NCBI GenBank assembly: GCA_005877365.1
Contig: VBPP01000135.1
Span: 1-28,179 of the forward strand
DNA: 28,179 bases
From: Nitrososphaerota archaeon
GTDB taxonomy: Archaea > Thermoproteota > Nitrososphaeria > Nitrososphaerales > Gagatemarchaeaceae
Direction of reading: 5' to 3'
Below, in pieces: positions 1,200 through 23,335 of the stretch; the first letter of the stretch is position 1; each line of letters starts with the position of its first letter. Position numbers and translations under genes: made by a program. Under the pieces are notes generated by a model. That model was not told the origin of the DNA and did not search any database. It worked only from the letters and a program-made list of their open reading frames with translations.

Positions 1200-2417
1200 C
1201 TAGTGTGAGACAGCAGCTGCACCCTTCTCGCTCACCAGCCTGTCCTCCCGGAATCTCGAGAGTCTGAACGGTCTGATGACGTCGGGAGTCCTCTTTGTTG
1301 CGATCAGTTCGGCGATCCTCTTCCCCGACACTGGTCCTGCCTTGAAACCGTAAGTCCCCCAGCCCACATCGAGGACAAACCCCTTCAGGCCATCTACCTC
1401 CCCAAGTATCGGGCTGTAGTCAGGGGTCATATCGCACAACCCTCCCCACTGCCTCAGCACCCTCACGTGCCTCAGTCCTGGAAAGAGCTCGAGCGCATGA
1501 GCTACGATACTCTCCAGAGTCTCGAGCGTGGATCCCTGGCTATACGACGAGTACGGGTCAATCTCTGACCCCATGACGAGCTCACCCCTGTCAGTCTGGT
1601 ATACATAGACGTGAAGGTTAGCAGAGACGACCACCTTGTCCAAGAAGGGTTTGAGTGGCTCTGTGACACACGCCTGGAGGGGGTGGGTCACCACCGGAAG
1701 ATCGACGCCCACCATCTTCGAGACGGTGGTGCACCATCCTGAGGTTGCGTTGACCACGCAGTCTGCCCTTATCACTTCTCCCTTGTCGGTCCTCACACCG
1801 GTGACCTGGTGGTCTTTCACGTCTATGGTGATAACCTCGGTGCGGGGGTGAACCTCTCCCCCATGCCTCTCAACCCCCCTTGCATACCCCCAGACGACCG
1901 CGTCATGCCTGATCACCCCTCCGGGAGCGTGATAGAGTGCCGCCTTCACAGGATATCGAGGTCTGTCACTGGTGTCGAGCGCGGGAACCAGCCTTTTTAT
2001 CTCGTCGGGCCATATGACCCGGCTGTTGACTCCAAGAGCCTTGTTGACCTCCGCCCTCCTCCAGAGGCCATTTACCGCCGAGTCCGTGTGGGCAAGGCTT
2101 AGGTGGCCAATCTGCGAGAAGAGAAGGTTGAAGTTGAGCTCCTTCGAGAGCTCTTCGTAGAGCTTCAGACTCTCGCTGTAGAAATGTACCCCCTCCACGG
2201 TCATGTAGTTGGCCCTGATGATGGCGGTATTCCTACCGCTGTTCCCACCGCCCAGGTAGACCTTGTCCAGGACCGCTACGTTAGTGATGTTGTGATTCTT
2301 TGCAAGATAGTAAGCAATCGAGAGACCGTGAACTCCCGCACCGATAACTACAACGTCGTATCTCGGTTTCAGCTTATGTCTCTGCCACATCTTCTCCTTT
2401 CTGAACAAGGCTCGCAA
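1200..2417 (-). CDS. soxB: Heterotetrameric sarcosine oxidase / N-methylglutamate dehydrogenase beta subunit (SoxB/MgdA)
   Basis: YDVVVIGAGVHG FAD motif, GGGNSGRNT, RHDAVVWGYARG, DMTPD, GWGTYGFKAGP and C-terminal EKGAAAVSH typical of SoxB. TTG start. Confidence 0.92.
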   Translation of the reverse strand: MRALFRKEKMWQRHKLKPRYDVVVIGAGVHGLSIAYYLAKNHNITNVAVLDKVYLGGGNSGRNTAIIRANYMTVEGVHFYSESLKLYEELSKELNFNLLFSQIGHLSLAHTDSAVNGLWRRAEVNKALGVNSRVIWPDEIKRLVPALDTSDRPRYPVKAALYHAPGGVIRHDAVVWGYARGVERHGGEVHPRTEVITIDVKDHQVTGVRTDKGEVIRADCVVNATSGWCTTVSKMVGVDLPVVTHPLQACVTEPLKPFLDKVVVSANLHVYVYQTDRGELVMGSEIDPYSSYSQGSTLETLESIVAHALELFPGLRHVRVLRQWGGLCDMTPDYSPILGEVDGLKGFVLDVGWGTYGFKAGPVSGKRIAELIATKRTPDVIRPFRLSRFREDRLVSEKGAAAVSH

Positions 2418-2427
2418 CTCAATCGCC

Positions 2428-3180
2428 CTAACCTGACGACCTCGAACCCCCTAACCTATCGGGAGAGTCGAGCCCGAACGGGGCGATTCCATACTCATGT
2501 CCAGCCTCGATGATAGCATCCCACACATACTCCGCGTAGTCTCTCCCACAGTAGACGTCGAAGGCAGTTGTGCCTCCTGAGGACTTCCCATCGAATCGCA
2601 CTATTGTTGAGTGGACCTTTGCGAGGCCGGCCTCCAGGCAGAAAGGTCCGCCTGTCTCTCTACCCGACAAGTCCACTTGAACCAGCTTCCTGAGAACCGC
2701 CTCGCTGGACGGCCCCCCAACTGTGAACCCAGCAAGGATCGAGGAGACGTTGGTGAGATTTGCTCCGTCCTCCAATTTCAGCATACCCTCAACGTCAAGG
2801 GCGGAGGTGGACTTGAACGGTTGCGTGAGGAGGAGCGCGTGCTCCTTCGTCAGCCTGCAAGCGTAAATCAAGGAGAAGCGCTTACTCCTCACATCTCGCT
2901 CTGATACCTGACTCGAAAGCTTGACCTCTCCCGCCTTCCTTGGGATGACTACAGAGGACAGGTTCTTCTCCATGAACTTGTCGACCTCGGTCCCCTTGAC
3001 GTCAACCTTCCCGTAATGGCTGATGTCGCATATTCCGACGGAACGGAGAACATTCTTGAACTCGTCTTCCGCCCCTCTGTAGAATCTCGGAAGAATCCAT
3101 CCATCAAGGTCTGCCAGCTTGGCACCCAACTCCGCGTGCCTGCGGTGGAGGGCTGTTCTCCTACTTGGCATCTCGCTCAC
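2428..3180 (-). CDS. GcvT-like folate-binding subunit at the gamma position (SoxG/MgdD-like)
   Basis: RRTALHRRHAELGA...GWILP...VGICDISHYGK resembles the GcvT N-terminus; DVYCGRDYAEYVWDAIIEAGHEYGIAPFG; lies between soxA and soxB. Confidence 0.75.
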   Translation of the reverse strand: MSEMPSRRTALHRRHAELGAKLADLDGWILPRFYRGAEDEFKNVLRSVGICDISHYGKVDVKGTEVDKFMEKNLSSVVIPRKAGEVKLSSQVSERDVRSKRFSLIYACRLTKEHALLLTQPFKSTSALDVEGMLKLEDGANLTNVSSILAGFTVGGPSSEAVLRKLVQVDLSGRETGGPFCLEAGLAKVHSTIVRFDGKSSGGTTAFDVYCGRDYAEYVWDAIIEAGHEYGIAPFGLDSPDRLGGSRSSG

Positions 3181-3207
3181 CCGTCCTGATGCTACCCCAC
3201 TGCTTCG

Positions 3208-6183
3208 TCATGCCCTCAATCTCTTCCCCTCTGGATCGTAGAAGGGCGCCAATGTGACCTCCGCACCATTCAGCGCATCGTCTGACTTTACCCTTATCAG
3301 TGACCCTTCCTTGTAATGCTCTGGGGTGACGAGAGCCATACCCACGCATCTGCCAACTTTTGGACTGAACTTTGAGCTTGTCACGAAACCGACATGCCGG
3401 CTCCCGTCCTGCGAGAAGACCTGGTCGCCGTCATGCGCAACCATGGAGTCCTTCATGACGAAACCCACAAGCATCCGCTCGGGCTCCTTCTTCTCGGCTG
3501 CGACCAGCGCAGCTTTACCGACAAAGTCCTCCTTCTCGAACTTCACGGTCCACGCCATGTCCGCCTCGAACGGATTTGACAGGGCGTCTGTATCTTGCCC
3601 TACGATAACGTGCTTCTTCTCCAGCCTCAGGACCCGTTGTGTCTCGACCCCGAATGGCTTAACTCCGAACTCCTTTCCGGCTTCAAGAAGGGTGTCCCAG
3701 AAATACTCGCCGAACTCGGCAGGGAAGTGTATCTCCCAACCGGTCTCGCCCACGAATCCAATTCTGAGCAGGATGCATGGAACCCCGGCCACCTCCCCTT
3801 CGGCGGAGCTCATGTAGGGGAACGCCCCACTGGAGAGGTCGACGGTCGTTAATTTTTGAAGGAGGTCTCTGGCTTTCGGACCAGCAACGTTCACTGCACC
3901 CAGACCAGCGGTCACGTTGGTGATGTAGGCGTCCAGCCTTAGTGCGGTAGCCCACCAGACGAGCCACTCTTCGACGAACTCTACATTCCCAGTCGTCGTC
4001 GTGATAAAGTAGTGAGTCTCGGAGAGCCTTGTCACAGTCCCGTCGTCCAAGACTATTCCAGCGTCGTCGCAGATGACTCCGTAGCGGCTCTTTCCGACCT
4101 TGAGTGTCGAGAATATGTGCGTATAGACAAAGTCCAGAAGCTTCCCGGCATCTCTTCCCTTAACATCAAGCCTCCCCAACGTGCTGACGTCGATTACCCC
4201 AACGCTCTCCCTGACTGCCTTGTACTCCTCTTCCACAGAGGTGTAGACGTGAGGTCTCTTCCACTCCCCCATGTCCATGATTCGCGCCCCGAGTTCGATG
4301 TGCTTGTAATGTATGCCTGTGAGTTTCACTGGATGAAGCTCGGCTCCCGCGAGTGCTCCCATGGCGACGGGCACGTAGGGTGGGCGGGAGACCGTCCTCC
4401 CCGTCTGAGCTATCGAGCGCCCCGTAACTCTGCTGCAGAGATGGAGCGAAGGCATGGAGCACATCTTCCCCTGGCAAGGACCCATCGTCACCGTACTGTA
4501 TCGCTTTAGGGTCTCTATATCGTCGAACCCCTCGAAGGTCGCGAGCGAAATATCCTTCGCCACGACATCTTCGCAGACGCACACGAACCTCTTCCGCATC
4601 TTGTCGGATCCAGGATATTCAACGACCAGCACATCGGGACCTCTCGTGCGTTTCATCCCCTCCCGGTATTTGCCCTCATACTGAGAGACTAGCCTGGAGT
4701 AGGTCTCGAGCGACTTTCTTTGATACTCGACCTTCAGTTCCGAACTTCGCTCCATCGCGGGGAGATTGACGGCAGCGCTCAGCCCCGCAACCTTGCCTTG
4801 CATTATGGCGATGTTGAGATCATGAATCCCGGTCAGGTCGCCACAGACATAGACGGTGGGTTTGAGTTCTCGAGGGATAAACTCCCTCAAGAGCTCGTCA
4901 TAGATCGTTCGAGAACCAGTCTGATTCAACAACCAAGCTTCGGTCTCAAAGCCTGTCGAGAGGCTTACCAGGTCGCAGCTCACAACCCTCTCCGTACCAT
5001 GTACCAACTCGCCCTCGTTGTCAACTTCGCATATCACGACGGAGCTCACGTGCTTCGACCCTCGCGCCTCTTTCACCGCCCATCCCAGAAAGGTCTGAAC
5101 CTTGGCGTCCTCAATCTCGGCCAGTGTTTCGGGCGCTCCGACCGCCTTCCTGGAGTCGATGTACGCTTCCAGCTTGACGCCTGCATCCATAAGCGTGCGA
5201 GCGACGCCGAGACCTGAATCGTTGTTCGAGACGACTACTGCCCTCTTTCCTGGGATGACACCGTACAGATTGACCAGACGCTGGATCCCCCTCCCCAAGA
5301 AGACCTCGGGAAGGTCGTTATTCTGGAAGACCGACGGGAATTCGTGAGCTCCAGTTGCGAAGACGAGTTGTTCGGCGCGTAGCCTGATCACACTGTTTCC
5401 CCGTACGATGCCAATCAGGTTCGACTCGTATATTCCGAATGCCGTCGAGTTGTCGAGGACTGTCATGTTAGGGCGGTCTCTGACAGCCTTCTCGAGTGTT
5501 GAGGCCACGGCGGAGGACTTGAGCCCAGAGTACGCCCCCTCGCCGGTCGCAACGTCTATGCTCAAGGTCTCGCCGGAGTACCGGAGGTGCCCTCCGAGAG
5601 CGGGTTGGTCATCAACCAGTACAACCCTCGCCCCGGCGTTGCCGGCCTCCAGCGCCGCGAAGATGCCACTAGGTCCGCCCCCAATCACTGCCACGTCAGC
5701 CTGGAGATTGAGGTGCTCGAAGCTGCTGGAGTGAATAGATCGACCATCCTTCGGACCCTTACCGGTCGCAGAGGCGATCTCCTCCTCGATGTCGCCGAGC
5801 CCGGTGAGCCGGCGGATAATCCACTCAACCCTGGACCATTCGATTGGTGGGTTGATGAAAGTCTTGTAGTAGAACCCGACGGGGAGGAACCGGCCAATCT
5901 TGTCGATAACGGAAAAGATGTCATGCTCGAGTGAAGGCCAGCAATTCTGAGATTTGACCTTCATCCCCGCCCTGACTCTCTCGGTGCATGCCTTGACGTT
6001 TGGGACCCCATCCACGCTCATCAGGCAGTTGGGACATCTTCCCGAGACGCAGAGTAGGCCTCTCGGCCGGTGATACTTGAAACTCCTGCTGAAGATCCTG
6101 ACCCCGGATGCGTACAGGGCAGACGCAATAGTATCACCCTCAAATGCACTCATTCTTCTACCGTTGAATTCGAAGTTCAGCAA
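3208..6183 (-). CDS. soxA: Sarcosine oxidase / N-methylglutamate dehydrogenase alpha subunit (SoxA/MgdC) with Fer2, pyridine-nucleotide, BFD-like and GcvT domains
   Basis: GDTIASAL, SRSFKYHRPRG, DVAVIGGGPSG, TLKRYST, GcvT-like C-terminal half (DVSTLG, RIGFVGETGWE, LRLEK). Start uncertain: TTG 6183 is the first in-frame start. Confidence 0.92.
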   Translation of the reverse strand: MLNFEFNGRRMSAFEGDTIASALYASGVRIFSRSFKYHRPRGLLCVSGRCPNCLMSVDGVPNVKACTERVRAGMKVKSQNCWPSLEHDIFSVIDKIGRFLPVGFYYKTFINPPIEWSRVEWIIRRLTGLGDIEEEIASATGKGPKDGRSIHSSSFEHLNLQADVAVIGGGPSGIFAALEAGNAGARVVLVDDQPALGGHLRYSGETLSIDVATGEGAYSGLKSSAVASTLEKAVRDRPNMTVLDNSTAFGIYESNLIGIVRGNSVIRLRAEQLVFATGAHEFPSVFQNNDLPEVFLGRGIQRLVNLYGVIPGKRAVVVSNNDSGLGVARTLMDAGVKLEAYIDSRKAVGAPETLAEIEDAKVQTFLGWAVKEARGSKHVSSVVICEVDNEGELVHGTERVVSCDLVSLSTGFETEAWLLNQTGSRTIYDELLREFIPRELKPTVYVCGDLTGIHDLNIAIMQGKVAGLSAAVNLPAMERSSELKVEYQRKSLETYSRLVSQYEGKYREGMKRTRGPDVLVVEYPGSDKMRKRFVCVCEDVVAKDISLATFEGFDDIETLKRYSTVTMGPCQGKMCSMPSLHLCSRVTGRSIAQTGRTVSRPPYVPVAMGALAGAELHPVKLTGIHYKHIELGARIMDMGEWKRPHVYTSVEEEYKAVRESVGVIDVSTLGRLDVKGRDAGKLLDFVYTHIFSTLKVGKSRYGVICDDAGIVLDDGTVTRLSETHYFITTTTGNVEFVEEWLVWWATALRLDAYITNVTAGLGAVNVAGPKARDLLQKLTTVDLSSGAFPYMSSAEGEVAGVPCILLRIGFVGETGWEIHFPAEFGEYFWDTLLEAGKEFGVKPFGVETQRVLRLEKKHVIVGQDTDALSNPFEADMAWTVKFEKEDFVGKAALVAAEKKEPERMLVGFVMKDSMVAHDGDQVFSQDGSRHVGFVTSSKFSPKVGRCVGMALVTPEHYKEGSLIRVKSDDALNGAEVTLAPFYDPEGKRLRA

Positions 6184-6202
6184 CTTCGACCTGTCGAGGA
6201 GT

Positions 6203-6439
6203 TCAGATGGACACGGAGTTGTCCCGAGTATCTCTTATCGCGAGAAACCACTTATGACAGCCAAGCCTGTGAAACCACCACTCCTGTTGAACGCCTGCGA
6301 CGTTCTCCCTCATGTATACATACTTCATCCACTCCTCGGAAGAGGAGTTGACTCTCGGCCTCTTGTGAGCCTCCCCCCCAAATCTGAATTCGTATACGTC
6401 TCTCTTGCCGCAATTCGGACACTCAAGCAGGAATCCCAT
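6203..6439 (-). CDS. soxD: Sarcosine oxidase / NMG dehydrogenase delta subunit (SoxD/MgdB), Zn-binding
   Basis: CPNCGKR..EFRFGGE, YVYMREN, EWWFHRLGC..WF..RDT; Cys/Cys/His/Cys ligands intact. Confidence 0.92.
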   Translation of the reverse strand: MGFLLECPNCGKRDVYEFRFGGEAHKRPRVNSSSEEWMKYVYMRENVAGVQQEWWFHRLGCHKWFLAIRDTRDNSVSI

Positions 6440-6493
6440 GGTATCTAGCTCACTTCATCCCTCCCCAGCTGATAGGTTTGTACAGTGAAACCA

Positions 6494-7849
6494 TCAGAGG
6501 TACGTCAGGTATCGGTCAACTTCCCACTGACTGACTGTGCTGTGATACTCGTTCCATTCCCTCATCTTCATCTTGGCATAATAATCCGCAAACTCCTTCC
6601 CGAGCGCATCAAGACTCACTCTGTCCCTCTGGAACTCGTCGACAGCTTCCTTCAGTGATCCGGGGAGTAGTTCGATCCCGCGCTCCTCCAAGTCCTTCTC
6701 AGTCGTCCTGTACATGTTCCCCTTATTCATCGGTCCCGGGTCGAGCTTTCTGTCTATCCCGTCGAGACCTGCCGCGAGCATCGCCGTGGTTGCGAGGTAG
6801 GGATTGCAGGCTGAATCGGGAGTCCTGTTCTCGATATGCTCACCCGAAGCTACCCTGATCATCTGCGTCCGGTTGTTCCCGCCATAGGAGATGTAGACGG
6901 GTGCCCAAGTCGCCCCCGAGGCCGAGCCGCCAGCCACCAGACGCTTATACGAGTTAACGGTTGGAGCGGTTAGCGCGATATACGCCTTGGCATGTTCGAG
7001 TAATCCACCGATGAAATGGTACGCGGTCTTCGAGAGACCTAGCTTCTGCGGGTCCCTCTCGTCGTAGAAGAGGTTCTTTGTCCCCTCCCATAGGCTCATG
7101 TGGAAGTGAGCTCCGTTACCTGTCCTGTTGGTGAAGGGCTTGGGCATGAAAGACGCTACTGCGCCCATTGTACCAGCAAGGTAGGAGACCGCGAACTTGA
7201 AGAAGGTATACTTGTCGCATGTGGCCAGGGCGTCATCGTACCTGATGTTGACCTCATACTGTGCAGGTCCGTCCTCATGGTCCGTGGCCTCGCTGTGCCA
7301 TCCAAGTTCATCGAGATAGTTGTTCAAGGTCTGGAGGAAATCGAGATTCCTCCCGAGAAGCTTGAGGTCGTAGCATGGCTTTGCAATGTTCTCTATGTCG
7401 TCGTACGTCCGAATGCGTCCGGCCTCCCTTTTCACGAGGTAGAATTCGGGTTCAATCCCTGTCTTGAAGGAAAGCCCCCTCTCCTTCTTCACTCTCTTCA
7501 GGAACCTGTCGAGTATCGTCCTGGTGCAGTAAGGCCAAGACTTTCCCTCGGTGTACAGGTTCGCCGCAAACCAGACGGTGTTCTTCTTCCAGGGGAGGAC
7601 CGTCATTGTGTTGAGGTCGGGTATCGTTATGAGGTCTGGTTGGTGTGGCTGCTGCCCCATCTCGGTGCTTACGGCGAACCCGGCGAAACCCACCCCGTTG
7701 GTGACCAAGTTCTGGAACTCAGAGACAGGAACCATCTTCGCCTTTGGCACCCCGTTGATGTCGACGAACTGAGAGAGCACGAACTGGATCCCCTTGCTCT
7801 TCAGGGCTTTCACCACTGAGGCAATCTCCTTCGTGCTAGCGCCATTCAA
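6494..7849 (-). CDS. gmaS: Gamma-glutamylmethylamide synthetase (GlnT/GmaS, glutamine synthetase-like)
   Basis: GS fold with GlnT/GmaS-type motifs GFAGFA, KPCYD, DHEDG, MPKPFTNRTGNGAHFH, SGATWAP, GGNNRTQMIR; embedded between mgs and mgd-like genes. Confidence 0.85.
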   Translation of the reverse strand: MNGASTKEIASVVKALKSKGIQFVLSQFVDINGVPKAKMVPVSEFQNLVTNGVGFAGFAVSTEMGQQPHQPDLITIPDLNTMTVLPWKKNTVWFAANLYTEGKSWPYCTRTILDRFLKRVKKERGLSFKTGIEPEFYLVKREAGRIRTYDDIENIAKPCYDLKLLGRNLDFLQTLNNYLDELGWHSEATDHEDGPAQYEVNIRYDDALATCDKYTFFKFAVSYLAGTMGAVASFMPKPFTNRTGNGAHFHMSLWEGTKNLFYDERDPQKLGLSKTAYHFIGGLLEHAKAYIALTAPTVNSYKRLVAGGSASGATWAPVYISYGGNNRTQMIRVASGEHIENRTPDSACNPYLATTAMLAAGLDGIDRKLDPGPMNKGNMYRTTEKDLEERGIELLPGSLKEAVDEFQRDRVSLDALGKEFADYYAKMKMREWNEYHSTVSQWEVDRYLTYL

Positions 7850-7855
7850 GTTCAG

Positions 7856-8938
7856 TTATTCACCTGCAAGCCTGACCCCGCTCATCAGAGAAGCTTCGAG
7901 CGTGAGGGCGGAGAGGTCTTCGTATTCCAGACTGTGTACATCCCCTTTACCCAATGATCTGGCCAATAGAGCAATCTCCATCGTCATCGAATTTATGAAT
8001 TTTGCAACTCTTATCCCTGTCCCCGGCTCAATCTTCCGGTTCGGGCGGCCCTCCTCTGCTATTTCGTTTGATGAGTTGTAGTATCCGAGAGCAATCAGCG
8101 CCGCTTCATCGATTCTCACAGCGTCTGCACCCAGAGCGAGAGCCTTCGACGCATCAGCACCGTTTCTTGTCCCTGTCGCCGAGATGAGGCTCACTTCCCC
8201 GAGTACCTTCCTCTCGCGCAGTGCCTCCCTTGCCCTCGGGATTCCCGCGATGATCGGAACCCTGCAATAGTCGAACAGGCCCTCTGGCCTCGTGATAGTC
8301 GAAGTCTTCAGGCCTCGGAGGACCAGACCGTCGGCCCCGACGCCTACCGCGGCTTTGACCTCGTCTTCAACCCGTGCCCCTGGGCAGCTCACAAAGATGG
8401 GGACCTTAACAGCCCCCCCTCTTCTGAGATCCCTTATGAGGCCGTGCAGCGCATCGACAGTCGTCCCAAGCTCGAGGTTGAGCTGTCTTGCTTCTGCCTT
8501 GAGGGAGGAGACGAGCCTCGATGCACCCTTTCGGACTGGCACCTCGTAGATCATTCGGTGAGCGAGCTTCCTCTCGTCGCGATTCACCTTGCCTTCCAGT
8601 GAGATCGCAGAGTTTGCCAAACTACTCCCCCTGGCAAGTTCCAGCCGCGCCCTGTTCTCTAGAGCCGATGACGCGCCGACGTAGATGGGAGTCTCGAGGA
8701 CGAGCGGGGTTGAGGCGGTTCTGGACCCGAGGGTGGTCTCTGTCTTGCATTTCTCCTTGTATCCCTCAAGCGGAAACCTGGTCAACCCGGACGCCAAGAA
8801 GACGAGTTCGTCGAATGTGGGCAGGTCGCGGAGAGGCCTGAAACCGCTCAGCCGGTATTGGCCTTGGGCCCTGCTGTGAATATCCGCGATTGTCTGGGGT
8901 GTCCAGATCTGACTATGAGGATAGATCAATGCCTTCAC
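7856..8938 (-). CDS. Degenerate MgsC-like FMN-glutamate-synthase-family paralogue, probably non-catalytic
   Basis: Aligns with the upstream MgsC (LPTFDELVFL, TRFPLEGYKEKC, RNGADASKALALGADAV, SMTMEIALLARSLGK) but lacks GMSYG, TGDGG, GQGAKP and the Fe-S cysteines. GTGA overlap with the mgsC stop. Confidence 0.8.
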   Translation of the reverse strand: MKALIYPHSQIWTPQTIADIHSRAQGQYRLSGFRPLRDLPTFDELVFLASGLTRFPLEGYKEKCKTETTLGSRTASTPLVLETPIYVGASSALENRARLELARGSSLANSAISLEGKVNRDERKLAHRMIYEVPVRKGASRLVSSLKAEARQLNLELGTTVDALHGLIRDLRRGGAVKVPIFVSCPGARVEDEVKAAVGVGADGLVLRGLKTSTITRPEGLFDYCRVPIIAGIPRAREALRERKVLGEVSLISATGTRNGADASKALALGADAVRIDEAALIALGYYNSSNEIAEEGRPNRKIEPGTGIRVAKFINSMTMEIALLARSLGKGDVHSLEYEDLSALTLEASLMSGVRLAGE

Positions 8939-10269
8939 TTTCCCCTTCCCGCACTCTTCAGCAGAGTCCCACCACTTCCGACCATCGGAACCTTCGCCAT
9001 CATCGACGCCTCGACGTTGAGCGCCGAGAGATCGTCTACCGTCAGGTCGTGGACATTCCGTTTACCAAGTGCACAGGTGATCAGCTTCATCTCGAGTGTC
9101 ATCGAACTCAGCAGGTTCGCGACTCTGACGGCCGCTTCATCGATAGCCAATCGCTTCTCGAGGAGCGGGTCCTGGGTGGTTATCCCGACGGGGCACTTCC
9201 CCGTGTGGCACTTGGTGCAGTATCCTGCAGGTACCCCTACCTCTCGAACAAAATCGGTGATTCCAGGAAGCTCCCGGTTGCAGTTCAACGCGATGATTGC
9301 CGCCTGTCCTATCGCGACGGCGTCCGCGCCAAGTGCGATGGCCTTCGCCGCGTCTATACCGTTCCTTATTCCACCGGATGCTACAAGGTAGACCTTCTTG
9401 AGAAGACCTAGCTCTTCGAGTGCCTCTCTTGCGAGCACGATTCCCGGAAGCGTCGGTATGCCGGAATGGTCGAGGACCACCTCGCTCGATGCTCCCGTCC
9501 CAGCCTGCATGCCGTCTATCACGATCCCATCGGCGCCGGCTTTTGCGGCGAGCTTCACGTCGTCCTTCACCCTGCAGGCTGGAATCTTCACCTGCACCGG
9601 GACCCTCCAGTCTGTCACTTCCCTCAGCATCTCGATGAAGATCCCAAGGTCGTCTGGACCGAGCCAGTCCGGATGCCGGGTGGGAGACCTCTGATCTATC
9701 CCTGGCGGCAGCTCCCTCTTCTTTGCGATGATCGCGCTCACCTTCTGACCCATCAGTAGGCCGCCCGTGGCTGGCTTGGCACCTTGGCCTACGACAACCT
9801 CGACAGCGTCACCGCTGATCATGTCCTGTGGTGTGACGCCGTACCTGCTCGCGTTCACCTGATAGATCATCGTCGTCGAGTACTTTCGCTCCTCGGTCAG
9901 CATCCCGCCATCGCCCGTGCAGGTGGCAGTCCCGACCTTGGCAGCTCCCTTGGCGAGAGCAGTCTTCGCGCTCCTTGAGAGTGCACCGTAGCTCATTCCG
10001 GTGATGTAGACGGGAGTGGAGATACTTATCGCGTTCCTTGCGTAGCGGGTCCCCAGAACTGTCTCTGTGCTGACGTCAGCCGGCCGTAACTCAACCCCCC
10101 TCCCAGATATGTACCTCGGAATGAAGATAATGTCGTCGAAATGGGCTATCCGCTGGAACGTGCTAAAACCCCTTATTCTGTAGCGCCCGAGGTCTGCCTT
10201 CACCTGGAGGTCCTGGAAGACTTCATTGGTCCAGCCCTCGCGCCGAGAGACTTCATCGGACACAATCAT
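8935..10269 (-). CDS. mgsC: N-methylglutamate synthase subunit C (FMN-binding glutamate synthase domain, Fe-S cysteines)
   Basis: GMSYGALS, TGDGGM, EVVVGQGAKP..GG.LMGQK (MgsC-type rather than GltB EIK), RSPTRHPDW, CTKCHTGKCPVGITTQDP. Confidence 0.88.
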   Translation of the reverse strand: MIVSDEVSRREGWTNEVFQDLQVKADLGRYRIRGFSTFQRIAHFDDIIFIPRYISGRGVELRPADVSTETVLGTRYARNAISISTPVYITGMSYGALSRSAKTALAKGAAKVGTATCTGDGGMLTEERKYSTTMIYQVNASRYGVTPQDMISGDAVEVVVGQGAKPATGGLLMGQKVSAIIAKKRELPPGIDQRSPTRHPDWLGPDDLGIFIEMLREVTDWRVPVQVKIPACRVKDDVKLAAKAGADGIVIDGMQAGTGASSEVVLDHSGIPTLPGIVLAREALEELGLLKKVYLVASGGIRNGIDAAKAIALGADAVAIGQAAIIALNCNRELPGITDFVREVGVPAGYCTKCHTGKCPVGITTQDPLLEKRLAIDEAAVRVANLLSSMTLEMKLITCALGKRNVHDLTVDDLSALNVEASMMAKVPMVGSGGTLLKSAGRGK

Positions 10270-10306
10270 TCGGTTGTTATCACTTCAGCGCTGGCGGCTC
10301 CAGTGA

Positions 10307-10319
10307 ATTATACTTTCTT
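10307..10319 (-). promoter_or_regulatory. Candidate internal BRE-TATA promoter for mgsC
   Basis: AAGAAAG-TATAAT on the minus strand in a 65-bp gap, ~38 nt above the mgsC ATG. Confidence 0.45.
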
Positions 10320-10334
10320 GGAGCGTTAGAGCGG

Positions 10335-11090
10335 CTAGATGACCAGTCTTTCTCTCTCCAATGGTTCGAGAGAGTCGTACTGGTAGAGCCTCTTGGCCGA
10401 GACTATCTTCCTGAATCTCCTTGGAAGAATGTCGTCCCGGAATTTAAGGGCCTTCAGAAAAGCCCTCAATTCTACCTCCTCACTTCGGGTCGCGGACTCG
10501 GTCTTCGCATCTACGCCGAGTGAGCCGATCTCCCCGCCGACGTACACGATTCCCTCGTACATCGAGTCACCTGCAGCGTCTCCCACACCCCCCATGACGA
10601 TTATCCTGCCTCTCTGCATCATGAATCCAGTCAGGAATCCGCTGTTGCCGGCGATCACCAGAGTCCCTCCCTTCATCGATATGCCGGCCCTCGCACCCGC
10701 GTTCCCCCAGACGAGAATCTGACCGCCCCTCATCGATGCGCCCACGGAGGCGCCAGCATCTTCCCTGATGACTATGCTCCCTGACATCAGATTGTCTCCC
10801 AAGCCCCAACCGGAGTTGCCCTCGATTGTGGCGCTGATACCGTCACAGAAGGCGCAGCAGTAGTATCCCACGCTCCCGGCGAAGGATAAGCTGCATCTCT
10901 TGACTATCCCGACCGCGAGATTATGCCTCGCGTCGGGGTTGAGGATTGTGATGTACCTTCCCTTCGAGACTCCCGACTTTATTGAAGCGTTCAGCAGTCT
11001 CGTCGTAAGCTTGCGTGCGTCGATAGAGTACCCCTGTGAGACTGGGGCGGAGAGAGCTTTGGGCACGTTACCTGCCAGCCTCTCGGTCAA
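10335..11090 (-). CDS. mgsB: N-methylglutamate synthase subunit B (GXGXG / GltB C-terminal-like)
   Basis: NPDARHNLAVG, repeated GXGXG units (GNSGWGLGDNLMSG, GNAGARAGISMKGG, GFLTGFMMQRG, GDSMYEG). Confidence 0.9.
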   Translation of the reverse strand: MTERLAGNVPKALSAPVSQGYSIDARKLTTRLLNASIKSGVSKGRYITILNPDARHNLAVGIVKRCSLSFAGSVGYYCCAFCDGISATIEGNSGWGLGDNLMSGSIVIREDAGASVGASMRGGQILVWGNAGARAGISMKGGTLVIAGNSGFLTGFMMQRGRIIVMGGVGDAAGDSMYEGIVYVGGEIGSLGVDAKTESATRSEEVELRAFLKALKFRDDILPRRFRKIVSAKRLYQYDSLEPLERERLVI

Positions 11091-11103
11091 GATCGGTGCA
11101 TAG

Positions 11104-12051
11104 TTAATTGAGGCGGACTTTTATCCGAGGTGCGAGAGAAACATTCCAGGTAAGGACCTCGTGCTCTTGCGGCTCGATCCTCCTCACGTCGTCAGGGAAG
11201 ATTCGCCGGAGCGCAACCTCTTCTGAGGCGACCCCGACCATTTCGTCGGTCTCCAGTATTACGAACGGCTTTGCGGACCAGCGGTCCTTCGCCATGCCAA
11301 TCCCCGAGTCGGTGGAGACCACGTACGTGAAGGTCCCGTCCAGGTCGTCCAAGCTCTCCTCGAGGGCGTCTCCGAGCTTCCGTCTCCTGCTTAGTTTGTC
11401 AGCGATGTACACAGCGATAACTTCAGAGTCGTTATGTGTCTGGAACCTAAAGCCTCGCTGCTGAAACTCTCTTTTCAGCTTGTGGTAGTTGGTCAATTGG
11501 CCATTGTGGACGACGGTAATGTCCGGAAAGGGATACGCCCAGAAAGGATGAGAGTGCGTGATATCGACCTGGCTCTCGGTCGCAAGTCTTACGTGTCCAA
11601 GCCCGTGTGTCCCGTTGACCTTTGAGAAATGATGCTTCTTATCCAGCTCGTAAGCATCTCCCACGTCCTTGATAACCTCTGAGGATCTACCTATACTGTG
11701 AATCTCTGCTCCCTTGACAGAGAGGATTGAGTCTGACAACTTTCCCAGGTCCCCTGAGTAGTTCAATCCAATCCTGCGAAACCTGCCAAAGTCGTCAATG
11801 AAGACGACGGATCCCCCGAGCGCTGCGACGGCGTTCCTCACGCCCTCAATTACATGCGAAGCTCCTTGGTCCTCTGAGACCACCACGCGGACGACATAGT
11901 CAGTCCCAAAGTGCTGGCCGGCAATGTTCACACCCGTCGAGTCAACGCCCCTGTGTCGCATGGAATAGAGCATCTCCCTTAGCTGAAGACCAACGGCTTG
12001 TGAACTGGTGCTTTCGCCCGTCTTATACAGGATCGCGGCTATTCCGCACAT
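11104..12051 (-). CDS. mgsA: N-methylglutamate synthase subunit A (class II glutamine amidotransferase, Ntn)
   Basis: Start reassigned to ATG 12051 so that Cys2 is the Ntn nucleophile: MCGIAAIL, RHRGVDSTG, GHVRLATES, HSHPF, VHNGQLTNY, NDSEV, LDGTFT, KDRWSAKP. Confidence 0.9.
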   Translation of the reverse strand: MCGIAAILYKTGESTSSQAVGLQLREMLYSMRHRGVDSTGVNIAGQHFGTDYVVRVVVSEDQGASHVIEGVRNAVAALGGSVVFIDDFGRFRRIGLNYSGDLGKLSDSILSVKGAEIHSIGRSSEVIKDVGDAYELDKKHHFSKVNGTHGLGHVRLATESQVDITHSHPFWAYPFPDITVVHNGQLTNYHKLKREFQQRGFRFQTHNDSEVIAVYIADKLSRRRKLGDALEESLDDLDGTFTYVVSTDSGIGMAKDRWSAKPFVILETDEMVGVASEEVALRRIFPDDVRRIEPQEHEVLTWNVSLAPRIKVRLN

Positions 12052-12075
12052 TACTTCTTCCCATGGGCGATGGTG

Positions 12076-12090
12076 GAAATAAGCTTTAGC
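12076..12090 (-). promoter_or_regulatory. Candidate BRE-TATA promoter for a near-leaderless mgsA transcript
   Basis: GCTAAAGC-TTATTT on the minus strand, TATA ~26-31 nt above the ATG, just outside the IS end. Confidence 0.4.
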
Positions 12091-12109
12091 CGTCATTGTT
12101 CTGATACCG

Positions 12110-12749
12110 ACAAGATGAGCTGAATGGAGTCTCTCCATTCAGCGTCTCATGAGGCCTCATGCGATTTGTACCAGAATGCGAACAGATGGACGAACCTTTC
12201 GACCCTCTTGATTGCCTTGATCCCCTCCCTGACGCCGAAGTTGTGGTGGAATCGCTTGGTCCCCTCCTTGAAGGTCCGATACCACCGTTCGATGTAGTTC
12301 CTGATGCTGAACGTCAGGGGCACCCGGTCCACGTCCAGCCACTCGAAGGCGCATGCTTACCATGGGGCGTGGTCGACTATGAACAGCGGATTCCTCCTGC
12401 ACGACTCCAGGGCCATCTTCGTGGTGTCTATGGTTGACGATGCTCACCGACCTGTAGGATTTGGCGGATACGATCTCCCTCCTCGTAAGGTGCGCGGAGA
12501 CGCAAGCAATCTTGCCGTTCCTCTTCACCTTAGTCTCGTCGAAGAGAATTACCGACATCTCCTTCCTCCTGGAGAGTGGTCGTGAGGAGAAGTACGACTC
12601 GAACTTGAGGATCCACTGTGGCCGCTTCAGCCTTGCTTCGACTGGAAACCTTGTGCCTCTGGAAATATCCTTCTGTGCTTCGTGGCTAGGAGGAACTCAT
12701 CCTTCGTCTTTTCATCACCCAATGAATGCGGAGGATGCCTCCTCGCCAT
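12110..12749 (-). pseudogene. IS6-family DDE transposase pseudogene
   Basis: Fragments across frames: QWILKF, LFDETKVK, LFIVDHAPW*, RNYIERWYRTFK..TKRF, MRPHETLNGETP. In-frame TAA at 12357-12359 plus several frameshifts. Confidence 0.88.
12119..12143. repeat. Perfect 11-bp inverted repeat with a 3-nt loop
   Basis: gctgaatggag-tct-ctccattcagc, read directly; adjacent perfect 14-bp palindrome catgaggcctcatg at 12148-12161. Confidence 0.9.
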
Positions 12750-12802
12750 ATCTGTTCCGTTATCTTGACGGTATCACTGATATGAATCTGCTCGACCTAG
12801 CA

Positions 12803-13723
12803 TCACTTTCGGATCCTCGGCGCCGGCGAACCGAGAACGGTAATGCGCGCCATGTTCCACATCGACTCTAGGCAGTTTCTCACGACCCTGGACGAAGGAC
12901 CGAGAACCCGTGCCACCAGCCCTAGAGTCATAGCCGTTGGGCTAACGCCGAGAAGCGTGTCCTCCTTGTGAGAGGCCGTCTGGATCATGTCGACAAGTTG
13001 CTGATTAACGCGTTCACTTATTACGTAGAAGTTGCCGAGGACATCATAGCCTCCCATCAATCCTTTTCGAGTCAGAATTGATTTCTTTGGCTCCAAGACC
13101 AGCGTGTCCGACAACAATGGGTTCCCAGCCTCGTCCTCGACCTTGAGCTTCGAGTAGAAGATGTCGAACTCAAAGTGCTCACGCCCCTTCCTGCCGGGGG
13201 TCAGTACCTCCCAGTAAATGAACGAAGAATCTCGGCCCATCACCACGTTTACCTCTTGGTAGTATCGGGAATTCCTGTACGGGATCGTTTGGTCTGGAAG
13301 GTATTCGAGGTACGAGCCTTCTCTAAGACTCACGTTGACGACTTGGGTAGCAAAGTCAGAGTTCATCCTGTAGATCTTCGTGGCCGCCTGTGTGGTCAGG
13401 TGCGCCCTCGCTGCGGTTCCCATGTCGATGTCAATGCGGATGCGGTCTCCCTGGAGCGTTCCCCCCGTTGGGTTGAGGATGTAGACGATGGCTAGATCTG
13501 GCTCATTCTGGTCATAGTAAAACGGCCTCAACACCTGCACTGGAATCTGCTTCCACACATCCTTGATGATGGTCTTTCCTGACTCGTCTTTTGCCAGCGC
13601 GAGTCTGAGACCGCCGAGCTTGCCTGGACTGCCCACGGATAGCTGTCTTACTCTTCCACCATAGGTCTGGACCTCTGGAGGTATTGCCGCCGGCTGGTAG
13701 TAAGCAAGATCCAACTGGCTCAC
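12803..13723 (-). CDS. ureD: Urease accessory protein UreD
   Basis: VYILNPTGGTLQGDR, HLTTQAATKIYRM, LEYLPDQTIPYRNSRY, EVLTPGR. GTGA overlap with ureG. Confidence 0.93.
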   Translation of the reverse strand: MSQLDLAYYQPAAIPPEVQTYGGRVRQLSVGSPGKLGGLRLALAKDESGKTIIKDVWKQIPVQVLRPFYYDQNEPDLAIVYILNPTGGTLQGDRIRIDIDMGTAARAHLTTQAATKIYRMNSDFATQVVNVSLREGSYLEYLPDQTIPYRNSRYYQEVNVVMGRDSSFIYWEVLTPGRKGREHFEFDIFYSKLKVEDEAGNPLLSDTLVLEPKKSILTRKGLMGGYDVLGNFYVISERVNQQLVDMIQTASHKEDTLLGVSPTAMTLGLVARVLGPSSRVVRNCLESMWNMARITVLGSPAPRIRK

Positions 13724-14346
13724 ATGAGCAGAACATTCTTCATTATCAGGTCCTCGAGCTGGTCGAGCCCCTCCCCGGTCTTACAGTTCGTGAAGACGAA
13801 GGGTTTTCCCTTGCGTATCGCACGGGCATCTCTCTCCATCACTGCAAGGTCCGCTCCGACGTATGGAGCCAAGTCCTTCTTGTTGATCACGAGGAAGTCC
13901 GACTGTATTATTCCCAACCCGTTCTTTCGAGGATACTTCTCTCCTCCCGCGGTATCAATGACGTAGATGAAGAAGTCCGCAACCGCCGGGCTGAAGGTGA
14001 TGGTGATGTTATCGCCGCCCCCCTCGATCATCACAAGATCAAGTTCGGGGTGCCTCGTCTCGATCTGCTGCAGCGCGTCGATGTTGATGGAAGGGTCCTC
14101 TCTGACGGCTGTGTGTGGACAGCCGCCCGTCTCAATCCCGACGACGAGGTCGTCCGGGAGGAGCTTGAGCTCATGGCACAGCTTGTCGTGCAGCCGTATC
14201 GCGTCCTCCTTGGTAACCACGTCGTTGCTGATTATTGCCAACTTGATCCCTCTCCTGCTCAGGTCCACGGTCAGCTTCTCGATCAGCGTGGTCTTTCCAG
14301 AGCCGACCGGTCCACCGACGCCGAGGCGGATTATCTTCTTTGCCAA
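13720..14346 (-). CDS. ureG: Urease accessory GTPase UreG
   Basis: GVGGPVGSGKT, ETGGCPHTAVREDPS, EGGGDN, NKKDLAPYVGA. Confidence 0.97.
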   Translation of the reverse strand: MAKKIIRLGVGGPVGSGKTTLIEKLTVDLSRRGIKLAIISNDVVTKEDAIRLHDKLCHELKLLPDDLVVGIETGGCPHTAVREDPSINIDALQQIETRHPELDLVMIEGGGDNITITFSPAVADFFIYVIDTAGGEKYPRKNGLGIIQSDFLVINKKDLAPYVGADLAVMERDARAIRKGKPFVFTNCKTGEGLDQLEDLIMKNVLLM

Positions 14347-14355
14347 GCCTTGTGC

Positions 14356-15051
14356 CTAGCAGTAGAACATCCTTGATTGGAGATAAACGTGTTGCATCCC
14401 CATCACGTCAAGCATGGGAGAGAAAGCATGCATGCTCCTCCAGGCGATGGCGGAGCTCCTTCTTGCACAGTTCATCAACTCATCTTTCGTCGAATGCAAG
14501 ATCTGCTGTGCCTGTACATGAGTCACGCTTCCGAGACGGACTGATGCCCCGACTAGGCTTACGGCAGAAGTGTACAACAGCAGGATGACTGCGCGTTCCT
14601 CGCCGATGCCTAGAGTACTGCAAGCAATTGCCAGACAGACGGCATAGTTGCCAGGCGCCTTCCCGGACTCGACCAAATTCCAGAATGAGGAAAGAATCCC
14701 GGTCTTCTTCAAGGCCCTCACTGTACGAAGCAATGAGCGTCCGGTTCTCCTACTGGCCTCGCTGAACTCCGTCACATTCTTGAATGAGGCGAGCTTCCTG
14801 TCTATCGCCACCAGAAGCCGGAGATCGTTCTCTCCCGCAGCAGAGAAGCTGCCTCTGAGTGCAACGCAATCCAGGGTCGAGAGTTGTTCCAAGAAGACTG
14901 AGAGGATGGATGATACGTCATCAGGACCCTTCACTAGCCCGAGTTGCGAGAGCGTCTCAATTCCGAATGACAGAGAGTAGCTTCCGAGCGGAAAGAAAGA
15001 GTCTGAGAACTGCAGAGTGGAGACGAGATCGTCATCAGTGTGTGTGCTCAT
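14356..15051 (-). CDS. ureF: Urease accessory protein UreF
   Basis: LQFSDSFFPLGSYSLSFGIE, SRRTGRSLL, VRLG...QAQQIL, C-terminal H...SRMF. Start reassigned to ATG 15051, overlapping the ureE end. Confidence 0.93.
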   Translation of the reverse strand: MSTHTDDDLVSTLQFSDSFFPLGSYSLSFGIETLSQLGLVKGPDDVSSILSVFLEQLSTLDCVALRGSFSAAGENDLRLLVAIDRKLASFKNVTEFSEASRRTGRSLLRTVRALKKTGILSSFWNLVESGKAPGNYAVCLAIACSTLGIGEERAVILLLYTSAVSLVGASVRLGSVTHVQAQQILHSTKDELMNCARRSSAIAWRSMHAFSPMLDVMGMQHVYLQSRMFYC

Positions 15052-15559
15052 ATCCGAGTATCTCGGGCTCAACATCGAGAATCCTCTTTTCAACCTTCAA
15101 GGATACCCCACCGAAGCTAGAAAGCACCTTCGAGAGGTCTTCCTTAGACCCTTCAATCGGGATCACAATCTCATTTCCCTTGGGGAAGAGCGGGAAGTGC
15201 TTGATACCAAGCATGTAACCAATCCTCGCCGCGGTCTCGACCCCCTCCCTCCAATCCTCATGAGGGGAAAGGGTGACGACCATCGTCTCTTCTGGCAGCC
15301 ACTCCACCGTAAGAATCTCGTCCTCGCCCAGATGGAGTACATCGCCGTGCTTTAGGGTTGTACCTCTCGGCACGTCTATCAGCACGTCGGTCCCTCGTTG
15401 ACTGGTAACGCGCAGCCTGTTCTTCGCTGCGTCCCTCCGCGGCAGTCGGATTCGGTCCGCCCTGTCCTTGGACAAGAGGTCGTGAAACCGGCGACCCAAT
15501 CTTTCGTCACTGTACACGTTCCCCATCACGGCCTCGACCCTCAGGCTCAAGGCCACCAT
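15035..15559 (-). CDS. ureE: Urease accessory protein UreE
   Basis: KNRLRVTSQRGTDVLIDVPRGTTLKHGDVL, RIGYMLGIKH, short EHTH tail; lies between ureC and ureF. Confidence 0.88.
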   Translation of the reverse strand: MVALSLRVEAVMGNVYSDERLGRRFHDLLSKDRADRIRLPRRDAAKNRLRVTSQRGTDVLIDVPRGTTLKHGDVLHLGEDEILTVEWLPEETMVVTLSPHEDWREGVETAARIGYMLGIKHFPLFPKGNEIVIPIEGSKEDLSKVLSSFGGVSLKVEKRILDVEPEILGYEHTH

Positions 15560-15562
15560 CGC

Positions 15563-17272
15563 TCAACGGAGCGTGTAGAGCTGTGACAGAGGTAGGATCT
15601 TGGCCGGCTTTGAAGTGGCAAGTTTTCCATCGACCGTCACCTCATATGTCTCAGGATCCACCTCGATCTTGGGCAAGGCTTCGTTGTGCAGCATGTCCTT
15701 CTTCTTCAGTTTCCTAGTACCCTTCACAGGTAGAATCATCCTGCTCAGACCCAGTTTCTTTCGCAGCCTCTCCCGTACGGCGCTCGCCGCGACGAAGTTC
15801 GCGCAGAGGGCACCCACCGCCTTGCCAAATCCTCCGTACTGTGGCTTGTAAATGATCGGCTCGCACGTCATGAGGGAGGCGCTCGACTCCCCGGCCGCTG
15901 CCCACACGGGAAAACCACCCTTAACAATGACCTCCGGCTTGATTCCGAAGAACCCGGGCTTCCACAGGACTATGTCGGCCATCTTGCCTCGTTCGAGAGA
16001 ACCGACGTACTCGTCAATCCCGAAGGAGATTGCATTGTTTATTGTATACTTCGCGATGTATCGCTTCACGCGGAAGTTGTCATTCTGCTCCCCGTCTTCG
16101 GCCAGCTGGCCTCTCTCGAGCTTCATCTTGTGAGCCGTCTGCCATGTGCGCACTATGGTCTCTCCGATTCTTCCCATTCCCTGCGAGTCGGACCCAATCA
16201 TGCTTATCGCTCCCAGATCATGAAGGACATCCTCGGCGGCTATCGTCTCCGCCCGTATTCTTGACTCGGCAAAGGCCACGTCCTCCGGAATCTTAGGTTT
16301 CAAGTTGTGGCAGGTCATGATCATGTCAAGGTGCTCGTCGACGGTGTTGAAAGTGTAGGGTCTAGTGGGATTGGTGGATGATGGGAGGAAATTCGATTCC
16401 CCCGCTACCCTGATAATGTCAGGTGCGTGCCCCCCGCCAGCACCCTCCGTGTGGTAGGAGTGAATCGTCCTCCCCCCGACGGCTTCAATCGTGTCCTCGA
16501 CGAACCCTGACTCGTTGAGTGTATCCGTGTGGAGGCACACACAGACATCGTGCTCGTCGGCCACATCCAGACAAGGCCCGATTACTGCAGGCATTGCGCC
16601 CCAGTCCTCGTGTATCTTGAAACCTATGCACCCGCCCCTCAACTGCTCATCCAAGGATTCTGGCTTGCTGCTGCTGCCCTTTGCCAAGAAACCGAAGTTC
16701 ACGGGCATCGCCTCGGCGTGTTGAAGCATCCTGCCAACATTCCATTGGCCGCCTGAGCATATCCCGACGGTCACCGGGCCGAGGCCACCGCCTATCATTG
16801 TGGTTATCCCATTGCTGAGGGCCTCGTAGGCAAGTTGCGGGCTGTCGTGGTGGACATGAATGTCGATGCCCCCGGGAGTGGCGATTAGCCCCTCTGCGGA
16901 GATCACGTCGGTATTGGCACTGACGACAAGCTTCCTACCCACTCCATCCATCGTGTCCGGGTTGCCTGCCTTGCCCACACCTGCGATGAGACCGTTCTTG
17001 ATTCCTAGGTCAGCCTTGACTATACCAAGTACTGGGTCGATTATCAGCACATTGGTGATGACAAAATCGAGGGCGCCCATCTCCGAAGTAAAACCTGGGG
17101 CCAGGCCTAGACCATCCCTGAGAGTCTTCCCGCCGCCAAAGACGCATTCGTCTCCGTGTACGAGGAGGTCCTTCTCTACCTCGACCATCAGGGCAGTGTC
17201 GGCCAGCCTAACCTTGTCCCCTGTAGTGGGGCCGAAGAGCTCTGAATATTCCTTTCTAGGGATCTCTTTCAT
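15563..17272 (-). CDS. ureC: Urease alpha subunit (divergent substrate-pocket type)
   Basis: Start ATG 17272 ([27 protein letters not shown] overlap with ureB). Ni ligands intact: [36 protein letters not shown]. Confidence 0.97.
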
Positions 17273-17667
17273 CGTCCGGCATCCCTGTAGCCGTGCTTCC
17301 TCGCCAGCTTGAATGCCCTGCTGCGCACCGCCCTTGAGCGGATATCGCCCCGCGTCAGGTCGTTGAAACCCCAGAGCTTCTTCCTCCCCCCGAACTCCAC
17401 GAGCGAGACCTCCTTCTCGTCCCCAGGCTCGAACCTGACGCACGTCCCAGCCTGAATGTCCAGATGCATCCCGAAGGCCTTTTGCCTGTCGAATTCGAGC
17501 GCCTTGTTCACCTCGAAGAAGTGGAAGTGGGACCCTACCTGAACGGGACGGTCACCAGTGTTCTTGACAACGAGCCTCTCAGACCTGCGTCCGCGGTTCG
17601 TCACAACTGGCTCGTTTCCGTAGATGACCTCACCAGGAAGAAATACTTGAGATTCGCCAACTGACAT
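17269..17667 (-). CDS. ureB: Urease beta subunit
   Basis: [38 protein letters not shown]. Start reassigned to ATG 17667. Confidence 0.96.
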
Positions 17668-17672
17668 CTCTT

Positions 17673-18044
17673 CTACCCCCTGATCGGGTCGTGGACTGAG
17701 ACGAGTTTCGTCCCGTCTGGGAAGAGACACTCGACCTGCACCAGGCTGATGAGCTCGGGAACCCCGGGCATGACGTCAGACCTTCTCAGAATCTTCGTCC
17801 CGAGCTCCATGCACTCGGCAACAGACTTCCCGCCTCGCGCGGCCTCAGCGATCTCGTCGCAGATGAGGGCGACCGATTCGGGGTGGTTGAGCTTTAGTCC
17901 TTTTGACCTCCTCCTTCTCGCAAGCTCGGCCGCGGAGAAGAGGATGAGTCTTTCAACCTCCTTCGGAGTTAGTCTCGTATCCTCATTCTCAACTCCAGTG
18001 TACGCGGCTCGGAAGGATTTTTGTTTGAAATTGTCAGTTATCAT
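17673..18044 (-). CDS. ureA: Urease gamma subunit; start ambiguous (ATG 18044, or ACG 17978 at the canonical Met position)
   Basis: [48 protein letters not shown]. Confidence 0.94.
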
Positions 18045-18082: not shown

Positions 18083-18139
18083 TTGTGTCATGCGGGTGGG
18101 TCGGTCCCAGATGGCGTCGAGGGCGGGTGCACCCGGGCG

Positions 18140-23334: not shown

Positions 23335-23335
23335 C

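Follow-up and report, generated by a model that had tools for sequence, protein, structure and literature searches.

The question raised by this locus is whether a urease encoded next to genes of the N-methylglutamate (NMG) pathway is an ordinary urea-hydrolysing enzyme, or one whose remodelled substrate pocket accepts N-methylurea, as a first-pass annotation had proposed. The window, meaning the whole 28,179-nucleotide stretch analysed (Nitrososphaerota archaeon, assembly GCA_005877365.1, contig VBPP01000135.1, positions 1 to 28,179), is part of a 1.79-Mb metagenome-assembled archaeal genome that is 64% complete. The preferred answer, to which a probability of about 0.75 is assigned, is an ordinary nickel (Ni) urease of a short-loop subfamily, presumably acting on urea and housed in a horizontally acquired organic-nitrogen island. 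This reading draws on observations of which genes are present, which residues are conserved, how the protein is predicted to fold, to which clade the enzyme belongs and how it is distributed.

Urease genes and the active site of UreC

The urease genes lie on the minus strand in the order ureA, ureB, ureC, ureE, ureF, ureG, ureD, followed by a spacer and then by the NMG module. The genes, and the positions in UreC that concern the substrate pocket, are as follows.

17673..18044, minus strand: ureA, urease gamma subunit (NF009712, 145.1 bits against a cut-off of 123; start uncertain)
17269..17667, minus strand: ureB, urease beta subunit (NF009682, 144.3 bits against a cut-off of 129)
15563..17272, minus strand: ureC, urease alpha subunit, short-loop subfamily (TIGR01792, 853.8 bits against a cut-off of 680)
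16748..16792, minus strand: short loop, UreC residues 161-175, three residues shorter than GGGTGPAAGTHATTCTPG and than the solved ureases
16301..16312, minus strand: flap CHNL, with Cys319 and the catalytic His320 kept and His321 replaced by Asn323
16178..16180, minus strand: Gly365 in SDSQGMGR, aligned with the position of Klebsiella aerogenes Ala363
15035..15559, minus strand: ureE, Ni metallochaperone (UreE models match at 1.9e-26, below curated cut-offs)
14356..15093, minus strand: ureF (Pfam UreF, 104.5 bits)
13720..14346, minus strand: ureG, GTPase (TIGR00101, 257.8 bits against a cut-off of 204.2)
12803..13723, minus strand: ureD (Pfam UreD, 189.5 bits)
12139..12802, minus strand: ureD-mgsA spacer of 664 bp, with a possible insertion sequence (IS) relic

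The gene set for the holoenzyme is complete, the structural subunits UreA, UreB and UreC being encoded together with the maturation proteins UreD, UreE, UreF and UreG. UreC itself is a translation of 569 amino acids, which also scores 896 on NF009686 (cut-off 354). Residue numbers are those of K. aerogenes UreC (1ejw_C), carried over by a HMMER alignment with H134 and H136 as anchor points. All six Ni ligands are kept, with the window residue given in brackets: H134 (H139), H136 (H141), K217 (K219), H246 (H248), H272 (H274) and D360 (D362), in agreement with the first-pass annotation, which had called them intact. Further residues kept are H219 (H221), D221 (D223), C319 (C321), H320 (H322), R336 (R338) and M364 (M366).

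The differences are found around this centre. The loop lacks G164-T165-H166 of the K. aerogenes enzyme, and Ala167 pairs with Val169 in the HMMER alignment. Both the deletion and the exchange of Ala167 for Val had been noticed earlier and hold, with corrections of detail: the interval 16757-16792, previously assigned to the loop, spans only the first 12 of its residues, and the residue numbered Ala167 belongs to 'THATTC' and does not directly follow 'GP', so that the Val concerned is the second one. The replacement of Ala363 by Gly had been placed exactly. The earlier reading of CHNL for CHHL at the flap is likewise correct, with the change falling on His321, to which no catalytic role is assigned. 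As the H320N mutant in the PDB (1eju) reads CNHL at the flap, CHNL retains the catalytic His320 and only His321 is altered. In addition, HxH-ICPQ reads HVHHDSPQ in the window protein, a difference absent from the earlier description.

The AlphaFold model of UreC has a predicted local distance difference test score (pLDDT) of 90.8 and superposes on 2KAU_C with a template modelling (TM) score of 0.97 and a root-mean-square deviation of 1.3 Å; across the solved ureases the corresponding values are 0.97 and 1.3-1.5 Å. In Sporosarcina pasteurii numbering, the NH2 group of urea is hydrogen-bonded by the backbone carbonyls of Ala170 and Ala366 (PMC7433671), and on this point the first-pass annotation agrees with the review.

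Gene boundaries call for some comment. The start of ureB is likely the ATG at 17665-17667, within the open reading frame (ORF) 17269-17730. In the ureA ORF the conserved part begins at residue 24; at 17976-18044 (minus strand) there is no ATG at the conserved start (..DTRLTPKE..), and the sole in-frame ATG adds about 22 residues. With regard to ureE, UreE_N was found at the equivalent position in the urease clusters of relatives.

The short-loop branch and the archaeal host

The pocket features are those of a whole branch of the urease family. Among the 120 best homologues in the database, whose identities go down to 66%, all have SDSQGMGR, and every loop inspected was of the short type. In a maximum-likelihood tree the short-loop UreCs form one clade, with a Shimodaira-Hasegawa-like approximate likelihood ratio test (SH-aLRT) support of 99 and a stem length of 0.31, composed of an archaeal part, a small P0014 group, an alphaproteobacterial part with fused UreAB and a cyanobacterial part. 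The archaeal subclade consists of the window UreC and relatives 86-88% identical to it, all with CHNL. Among short-loop ureases the Asn of this flap is confined to the archaeal subclade; CHNL is also the flap in 10 of 80 ureases with the canonical loop, and the clade to which these belong has mostly Muribaculaceae and Porphyromonadaceae among its labelled members.

Members of the cyanobacterial part include Leptolyngbya, Oculatella and Chroococcidiopsis. Short-loop ureases are also carried on plasmids of Methylobacterium radiotolerans, M. bullatum and Aminobacter aminovorans, and the 'urease alpha 1' of Pseudomonas syringae B728a belongs to the clade. A 2008 report without biochemistry (PMC2492869) describes its gene, Psyr_2197, and further copies in Bradyrhizobium BTAi1 as additional ureases, probably spread by horizontal transfer. 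Characterised cyanobacterial ureases were considered as possible members and rejected: structural alignment puts those of Synechococcus WH7805, Prochlorococcus and Nostoc PCC 7120 at only 56-59% identity, which is the canonical-type range, short-loop members being at least 64% identical.

A loop variant with four residues deleted, e.g. GGSMGPLFAIDCGG, was seen at loci L103, L146, L152, L187 and L199, with Gly at the Ala363 position where readable; in some ureases with this loop the flap is CHLL. That Gly363 accompanies the four-residue deletion too is consistent with its compensating structurally for a shortened loop. Most likely the short loop and Gly363 are structurally coupled variants, through which both backbone carbonyls stay in place.

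Two scans contributed loci for comparison. A metagenome scan with a loop-region alignment relied on non-specific patterns and provided some 20 loci of the short-loop type and some 55 of the canonical type, while a genome-contig scan with P0001 returned, among the matches listed, canonical ureases only (57-62% identity), which were reused as canonical control loci. Representatives at 50% identity were uninformative, nearly the whole urease family falling into few clusters.

The genes that accompany named clade members point to urea as substrate. Typical neighbours are urt-type transporters, AmiC/ANTAR regulators, formamidase and genes of purine catabolism (urate, allantoin, allantoate). Plasmid pAA01 of A. 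aminovorans carries AmiC-like and ANTAR genes, urtBCDE, ureEF-AB-C-GD and HupE/UreJ, adjoining allantoinase and allantoate amidohydrolase; pMRAD01 of M. radiotolerans carries urate-to-allantoin genes, the short-loop urease and urtA; and a Dongiaceae locus (L100) combines an amide/urea ABC transporter, formamidase and a short-loop urease. On the related archaeal contig L002 (745-8500) the urease lies near AmiE (592.8 bits against a cut-off of 427), HAAT-type permeases, FolD, formate-tetrahydrofolate ligase and dihydropteroate synthase, a neighbourhood that looks like one of short-chain amide and one-carbon/folate type. A small SCO4226-like gene (PF14026, 79-82 amino acids) recurs beside short-loop clusters in two subclades (L003:3574-3813, L004:506-745, L125:11924-12172).

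Distribution among the relatives of the host bears on the origin of the operon. In 400 genomes of the same class, which includes ammonia-oxidising families, 177 others carry a urease, and all of these are canonical with at most 62% identity to the window UreC. Within the host family a urease was found only in the genus of the window (G000, G002). A search for amoA in G000, G001, G002 and one complete genome of the family found none, while the positive control matched; the idea that the host is an ammonia oxidiser using urease and NMG genes for energy was rejected on these grounds. Because the other ureases of the class are all canonical and that of the host family occurs in one genus only, horizontal acquisition by a non-ammonia-oxidising lineage is indicated.

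Taken together as a mechanism, the product of ureABCEFGD would be a functional Ni urease that supplies nitrogen by splitting urea into ammonia and carbamate. The operon would have arrived by horizontal transfer in a non-ammonia-oxidising archaeon related to the Nitrososphaeria. It lies in a block of about 23 kb between replication genes, probably devoted to organic-nitrogen scavenging, which also holds an NMG module for methylamine that would have been inherited independently.

N-methylglutamate genes beside the urease

The window is flanked by replication factor C at one end and by GINS and an intein-bearing MCM at the other. Between them, the neighbours of the urease are as follows.

1200..12138, minus strand: NMG module of nine genes, neighbour of the urease and not part of it (profile matches)
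11104-12138, minus strand: mgsA
10335-11090, minus strand: mgsB
8935-10269, minus strand: mgsC
7856-8938, minus strand: second Glu_synthase-domain gene
6494-7849, minus strand: gmaS (TIGR03105, 569 bits against a cut-off of 469.6)
6203-6439, minus strand: soxD-like
3208-6183, minus strand: soxA-like
2428-3180, minus strand: soxG-like
1200-2417, minus strand: soxB-like
18083-19273, plus strand: solA-like N-methyl amino acid oxidase (solA/MSOX family; NF008425, 447.7 bits against a cut-off of 257), divergent from ureA
19290-20763, minus strand: HAAT-family ABC transporter ATPases (generic)
20791-22152, minus strand: HAAT-family ABC transporter binding protein (generic Liv model match only)
22222-24538, plus strand: HAAT-family ABC transporter permeases (generic)

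The MCM helicase gene (25157-28177, plus strand) is split by an intein with a LAGLIDADG homing-endonuclease domain (Pfam Intein_splicing, LAGLIDADG_3) and continues past the end of the window. In the spacer between ureD and mgsA, a 133-amino-acid ORF was considered as a gene and rejected, being Arg-rich and without a family match. On the strength of an atlas lead only, another frame there (12147-12356, minus strand, 69 amino acids) is similar to C-terminal transposase fragments of the IS1/IS240 type and to small archaeal hypothetical proteins.

The NMG module has relatives of its own. The three closest (L236, L237, L238) share the identical nine-gene order, with GmaS 71-74% identical, and have no urease adjoining. 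The occurrence of the module without urease in these relatives, together with the 664-bp spacer and its possible IS relic, argues against biochemical coupling of the two systems, and nitrogen scavenging is the probable reason for their co-location.

How often the two systems meet was assessed by comparing the NMG proteins of the window with every urease locus fetched, counting those in which ureC had 8 kb or more of flanking sequence on one side, and scoring as positive those with at least two of gmaS, mgsA and mgsB within 10 kb. Four loci were positive, all with mgsABC-like genes, which a GmaS-like ligase accompanies in three of them. One is the window (L127 = G002). At L002 (UreC 86% identical) the mgsABC-like genes are 41-56% and a glutamine synthetase (GS)-like gene 32% identical, on the opposite strand. 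L125 (UreC 71% identical) has the order ureABC..GD-x-EF-mgsABC-gmaS-soxD-soxA, all co-oriented, with NMG proteins 48-64% identical. L126 has mgsA- and mgsBC-like genes and a GltD-like gene, without gmaS or mgd. Mgd genes were not seen within the 10 kb read at L002 and L126, and the NMG-like genes of these two loci may be ammonia-assimilation genes of GS/glutamate synthase (GOGAT) type. NMG genes were absent from all of the roughly 12 alphaproteobacterial or cyanobacterial short-loop loci that have good flanks, and none were seen near the close urease relatives P0008 and P0006, whose contigs are short. Co-occurrence with TIGR03105 in one cyanobacterial order was uninformative (5 of 6 short-loop carriers against 36 of 55 others, p = 0.65), this family being common there (41 of 61 genomes).

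Several findings weigh against an ordinary urease. NMG-like genes stand at 4 of 16 short-loop loci and at 0 of 90 canonical ones (Fisher p 0.0004; p 0.002 without the window's own lineage), and the differing gene orders and module types of the positive loci imply at least three independent juxtapositions (window, L002, L125). In the cyanobacterial order just mentioned, six of the 61 genomes carry a short-loop UreC (G041, G435, G443, G463, G478, G480) and a canonical UreC is co-resident in five of them; the usual place of the short-loop enzyme as an additional urease, alongside the canonical one, is a hint that its role is not redundant. The ABC transporter adjoining the urease falls below the cut-offs of the Urt models in every comparison (UrtD 181 against 304, UrtE 183 against 286, UrtB 98 against 250). 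Finally, the literature search found no published kinetics or biochemical characterisation for any short-loop urease, so that its ordinary activity is something we infer. The association between urease and NMG genes is real, yet not fully explained. One account of it is that short-loop ureases, being accessory, carried on plasmids and found beside canonical ureases, may simply land more often in mobile nitrogen-scavenging islands.

Coupling at the level of the pathway, with the urease itself ordinary, is unlikely, and of the alternatives it survives best. A precursor such as creatine, creatinine or methylguanidine would yield urea together with sarcosine or methylamine; these three products would go to urease, to the solA-like oxidase and to the NMG module, respectively. 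Such a scheme accounts for the recurrent proximity of urease and NMG genes with no change of specificity, and the divergent solA/MSOX-family gene beside an ABC importer suits it, as does a Creatinase_N/M24 gene about 6 kb from the short-loop ureC at the Dongiaceae locus. It is opposed by the lack of any creatinase, creatininase or guanidino-hydrolase gene within the window, the rest of the 64%-complete genome not having been searched, and by the absence of a solA homologue at the other NMG-positive urease loci (L002, L125, L126).

A shift in substrate range or kinetics shared by the whole short-loop subfamily, e.g. a useful turnover of N-methylurea or of other substituted ureas, is improbable, at around one chance in ten. 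If true, it would explain both the retention of these enzymes beside a canonical urease and the adjacency to NMG genes that arose independently in at least three lineages; this archaeon would then run a methylurea-to-methylamine-to-NMG route.

Specific hydrolysis of N-methylurea, or of another N-substituted urea, by this enzyme is very improbable. The shortened loop and Gly363 would make room for the N-methyl group, methylamine or N-methylcarbamate would be released, and the GmaS/MgsABC/Mgd module would turn the methylamine into ammonia and methylene-tetrahydrofolate. There is a structural argument in its favour, since the C-beta of Ala366 (S. pasteurii numbering) lies against the Ni(2)-site water displaced by the urea NH2 (PMC7433671), so that the exchange of Ala for Gly takes away bulk at exactly this point. 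The chemistry is also feasible, jack bean urease having been studied with N-methylurea as substrate according to the mention of Dixon et al. (1980) in PMC6077230. The excess of NMG-like genes at short-loop loci, the coexistence with canonical ureases, and the repetition at L125 of a co-oriented urease, mgsABC, gmaS, soxD, soxA order with a different module type can all be read in the same sense. Against this, the urea contacts at the two Ala positions are made by backbone carbonyls, not by side chains (PMC7433671), and the pocket features extend through the clade, including cyanobacterial and alphaproteobacterial members whose neighbours are urea/amide transporters and purine catabolism genes, not NMG genes. 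No alignment column, and hence no signature residue, is common only to the three NMG-linked UreCs. NMG modules occur in relatives without urease, no NMG genes are seen on the short contigs of P0008 and P0006, both close to the window urease, and two of the four NMG-like loci (L002, L126) could be GS/GOGAT-like. The literature search found neither a methylurea hydrolase nor any link from methylurea through urease to methylamine.

The proposal of the first-pass annotation, that a remodelled pocket makes this an N-methylurea hydrolase, is therefore not upheld: pocket residues typical of the whole short-loop branch give no evidence for a new methylurea-splitting enzyme, no column is NMG-specific, and the clade neighbours are of urea type. 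The co-occurrence of the short-loop/SDSQG clade with gmaS/mgs genes that it had suggested examining shows up as an excess in the locus counts, with the genes missing from most of the clade. It had also named, as a counter-indication, the same substitutions in characterised ordinary ureases with no link to methylamine genes; the substitutions proved widespread without such genes, in enzymes none of which was found characterised.

A preference shifted towards small amides (for instance formamide, acetamide or semicarbazide-like compounds), with the enzyme sharing short-chain amide catabolism with amidases, is the least probable of these alternatives: short-loop ureases do lie repeatedly near AmiC/ANTAR regulators, Fmd-type transporters and formamidase (L100, L105), and near the aliphatic amidase AmiE in the archaeal relative L002 (592.8 bits, cut-off 427), but those clusters already have dedicated amidases, which leaves urea as the obvious remaining substrate of a shared amide/urea transporter, and the residues binding both urea nitrogens are all kept.

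Comparison with known ureases and the bacterial NMG pathway

If the ordinary-urease reading holds, the result is a modest one, namely a bacterial-type urease gained horizontally by a non-ammonia-oxidising relative of ammonia-oxidising archaea. The wider interest lies in a large, uncharacterised urease subfamily that spans cyanobacteria, methylotroph plasmids and plant-associated Pseudomonas, with an active-site periphery that is consistently different. Whether such 'second ureases' are redundant, differently regulated or retuned affects how urea-cycling genes are counted in metagenomes.

The UreABC enzyme of K. aerogenes (PDB 2KAU/1EJW) and the ureases of S. pasteurii and jack bean are the same three-subunit Ni enzyme type, and the window UreC is 54-58% identical to them in structural alignments. 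Shared with ureases of the K. aerogenes type are the Ni ligands, the carbamylated Lys, H219, D221, the C319-H320 flap, R336 and the UreDEFG genes, whereas G164-T165-H166 is missing and Ala167 is replaced by Val, Ala363 by Gly, His321 by Asn and ICPQ by DSPQ.

Closer likeness is found in the additional ureases of proteobacteria, Psyr_2197 (UniProt Q4ZUD2, 'alpha 1'), Bradyrhizobium BTAi1, pMRAD01 and pAA01, which combine GGSLGPITVGID[CS]GG with SDSQGMGR at 64-66% identity. They differ in having fused UreAB, the gene order ureE-F-AB-C-G-D and CHHL instead of CHNL, and their neighbours are urt, AmiC/ANTAR, formamidase or purine-catabolism genes, not NMG genes. The accessory urease of filamentous cyanobacteria (for example Leptolyngbya sp. 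BL-A-14) has the identical loop motif, separate UreA, UreB and UreC and about 69% identity, but differs in its order ureABC-G-D-x-F, in CHHL and in having no adjoining NMG genes.

As for the neighbouring module, no description of the NMG pathway in archaea was found in the literature searched. The enzyme set and modular order of the window module are like those of the bacterial NMG pathway (GmaS, MgsABC, MgdABCD), from which it differs in its archaeal host and in the extra Glu_synthase-domain paralogue between mgsC and gmaS.

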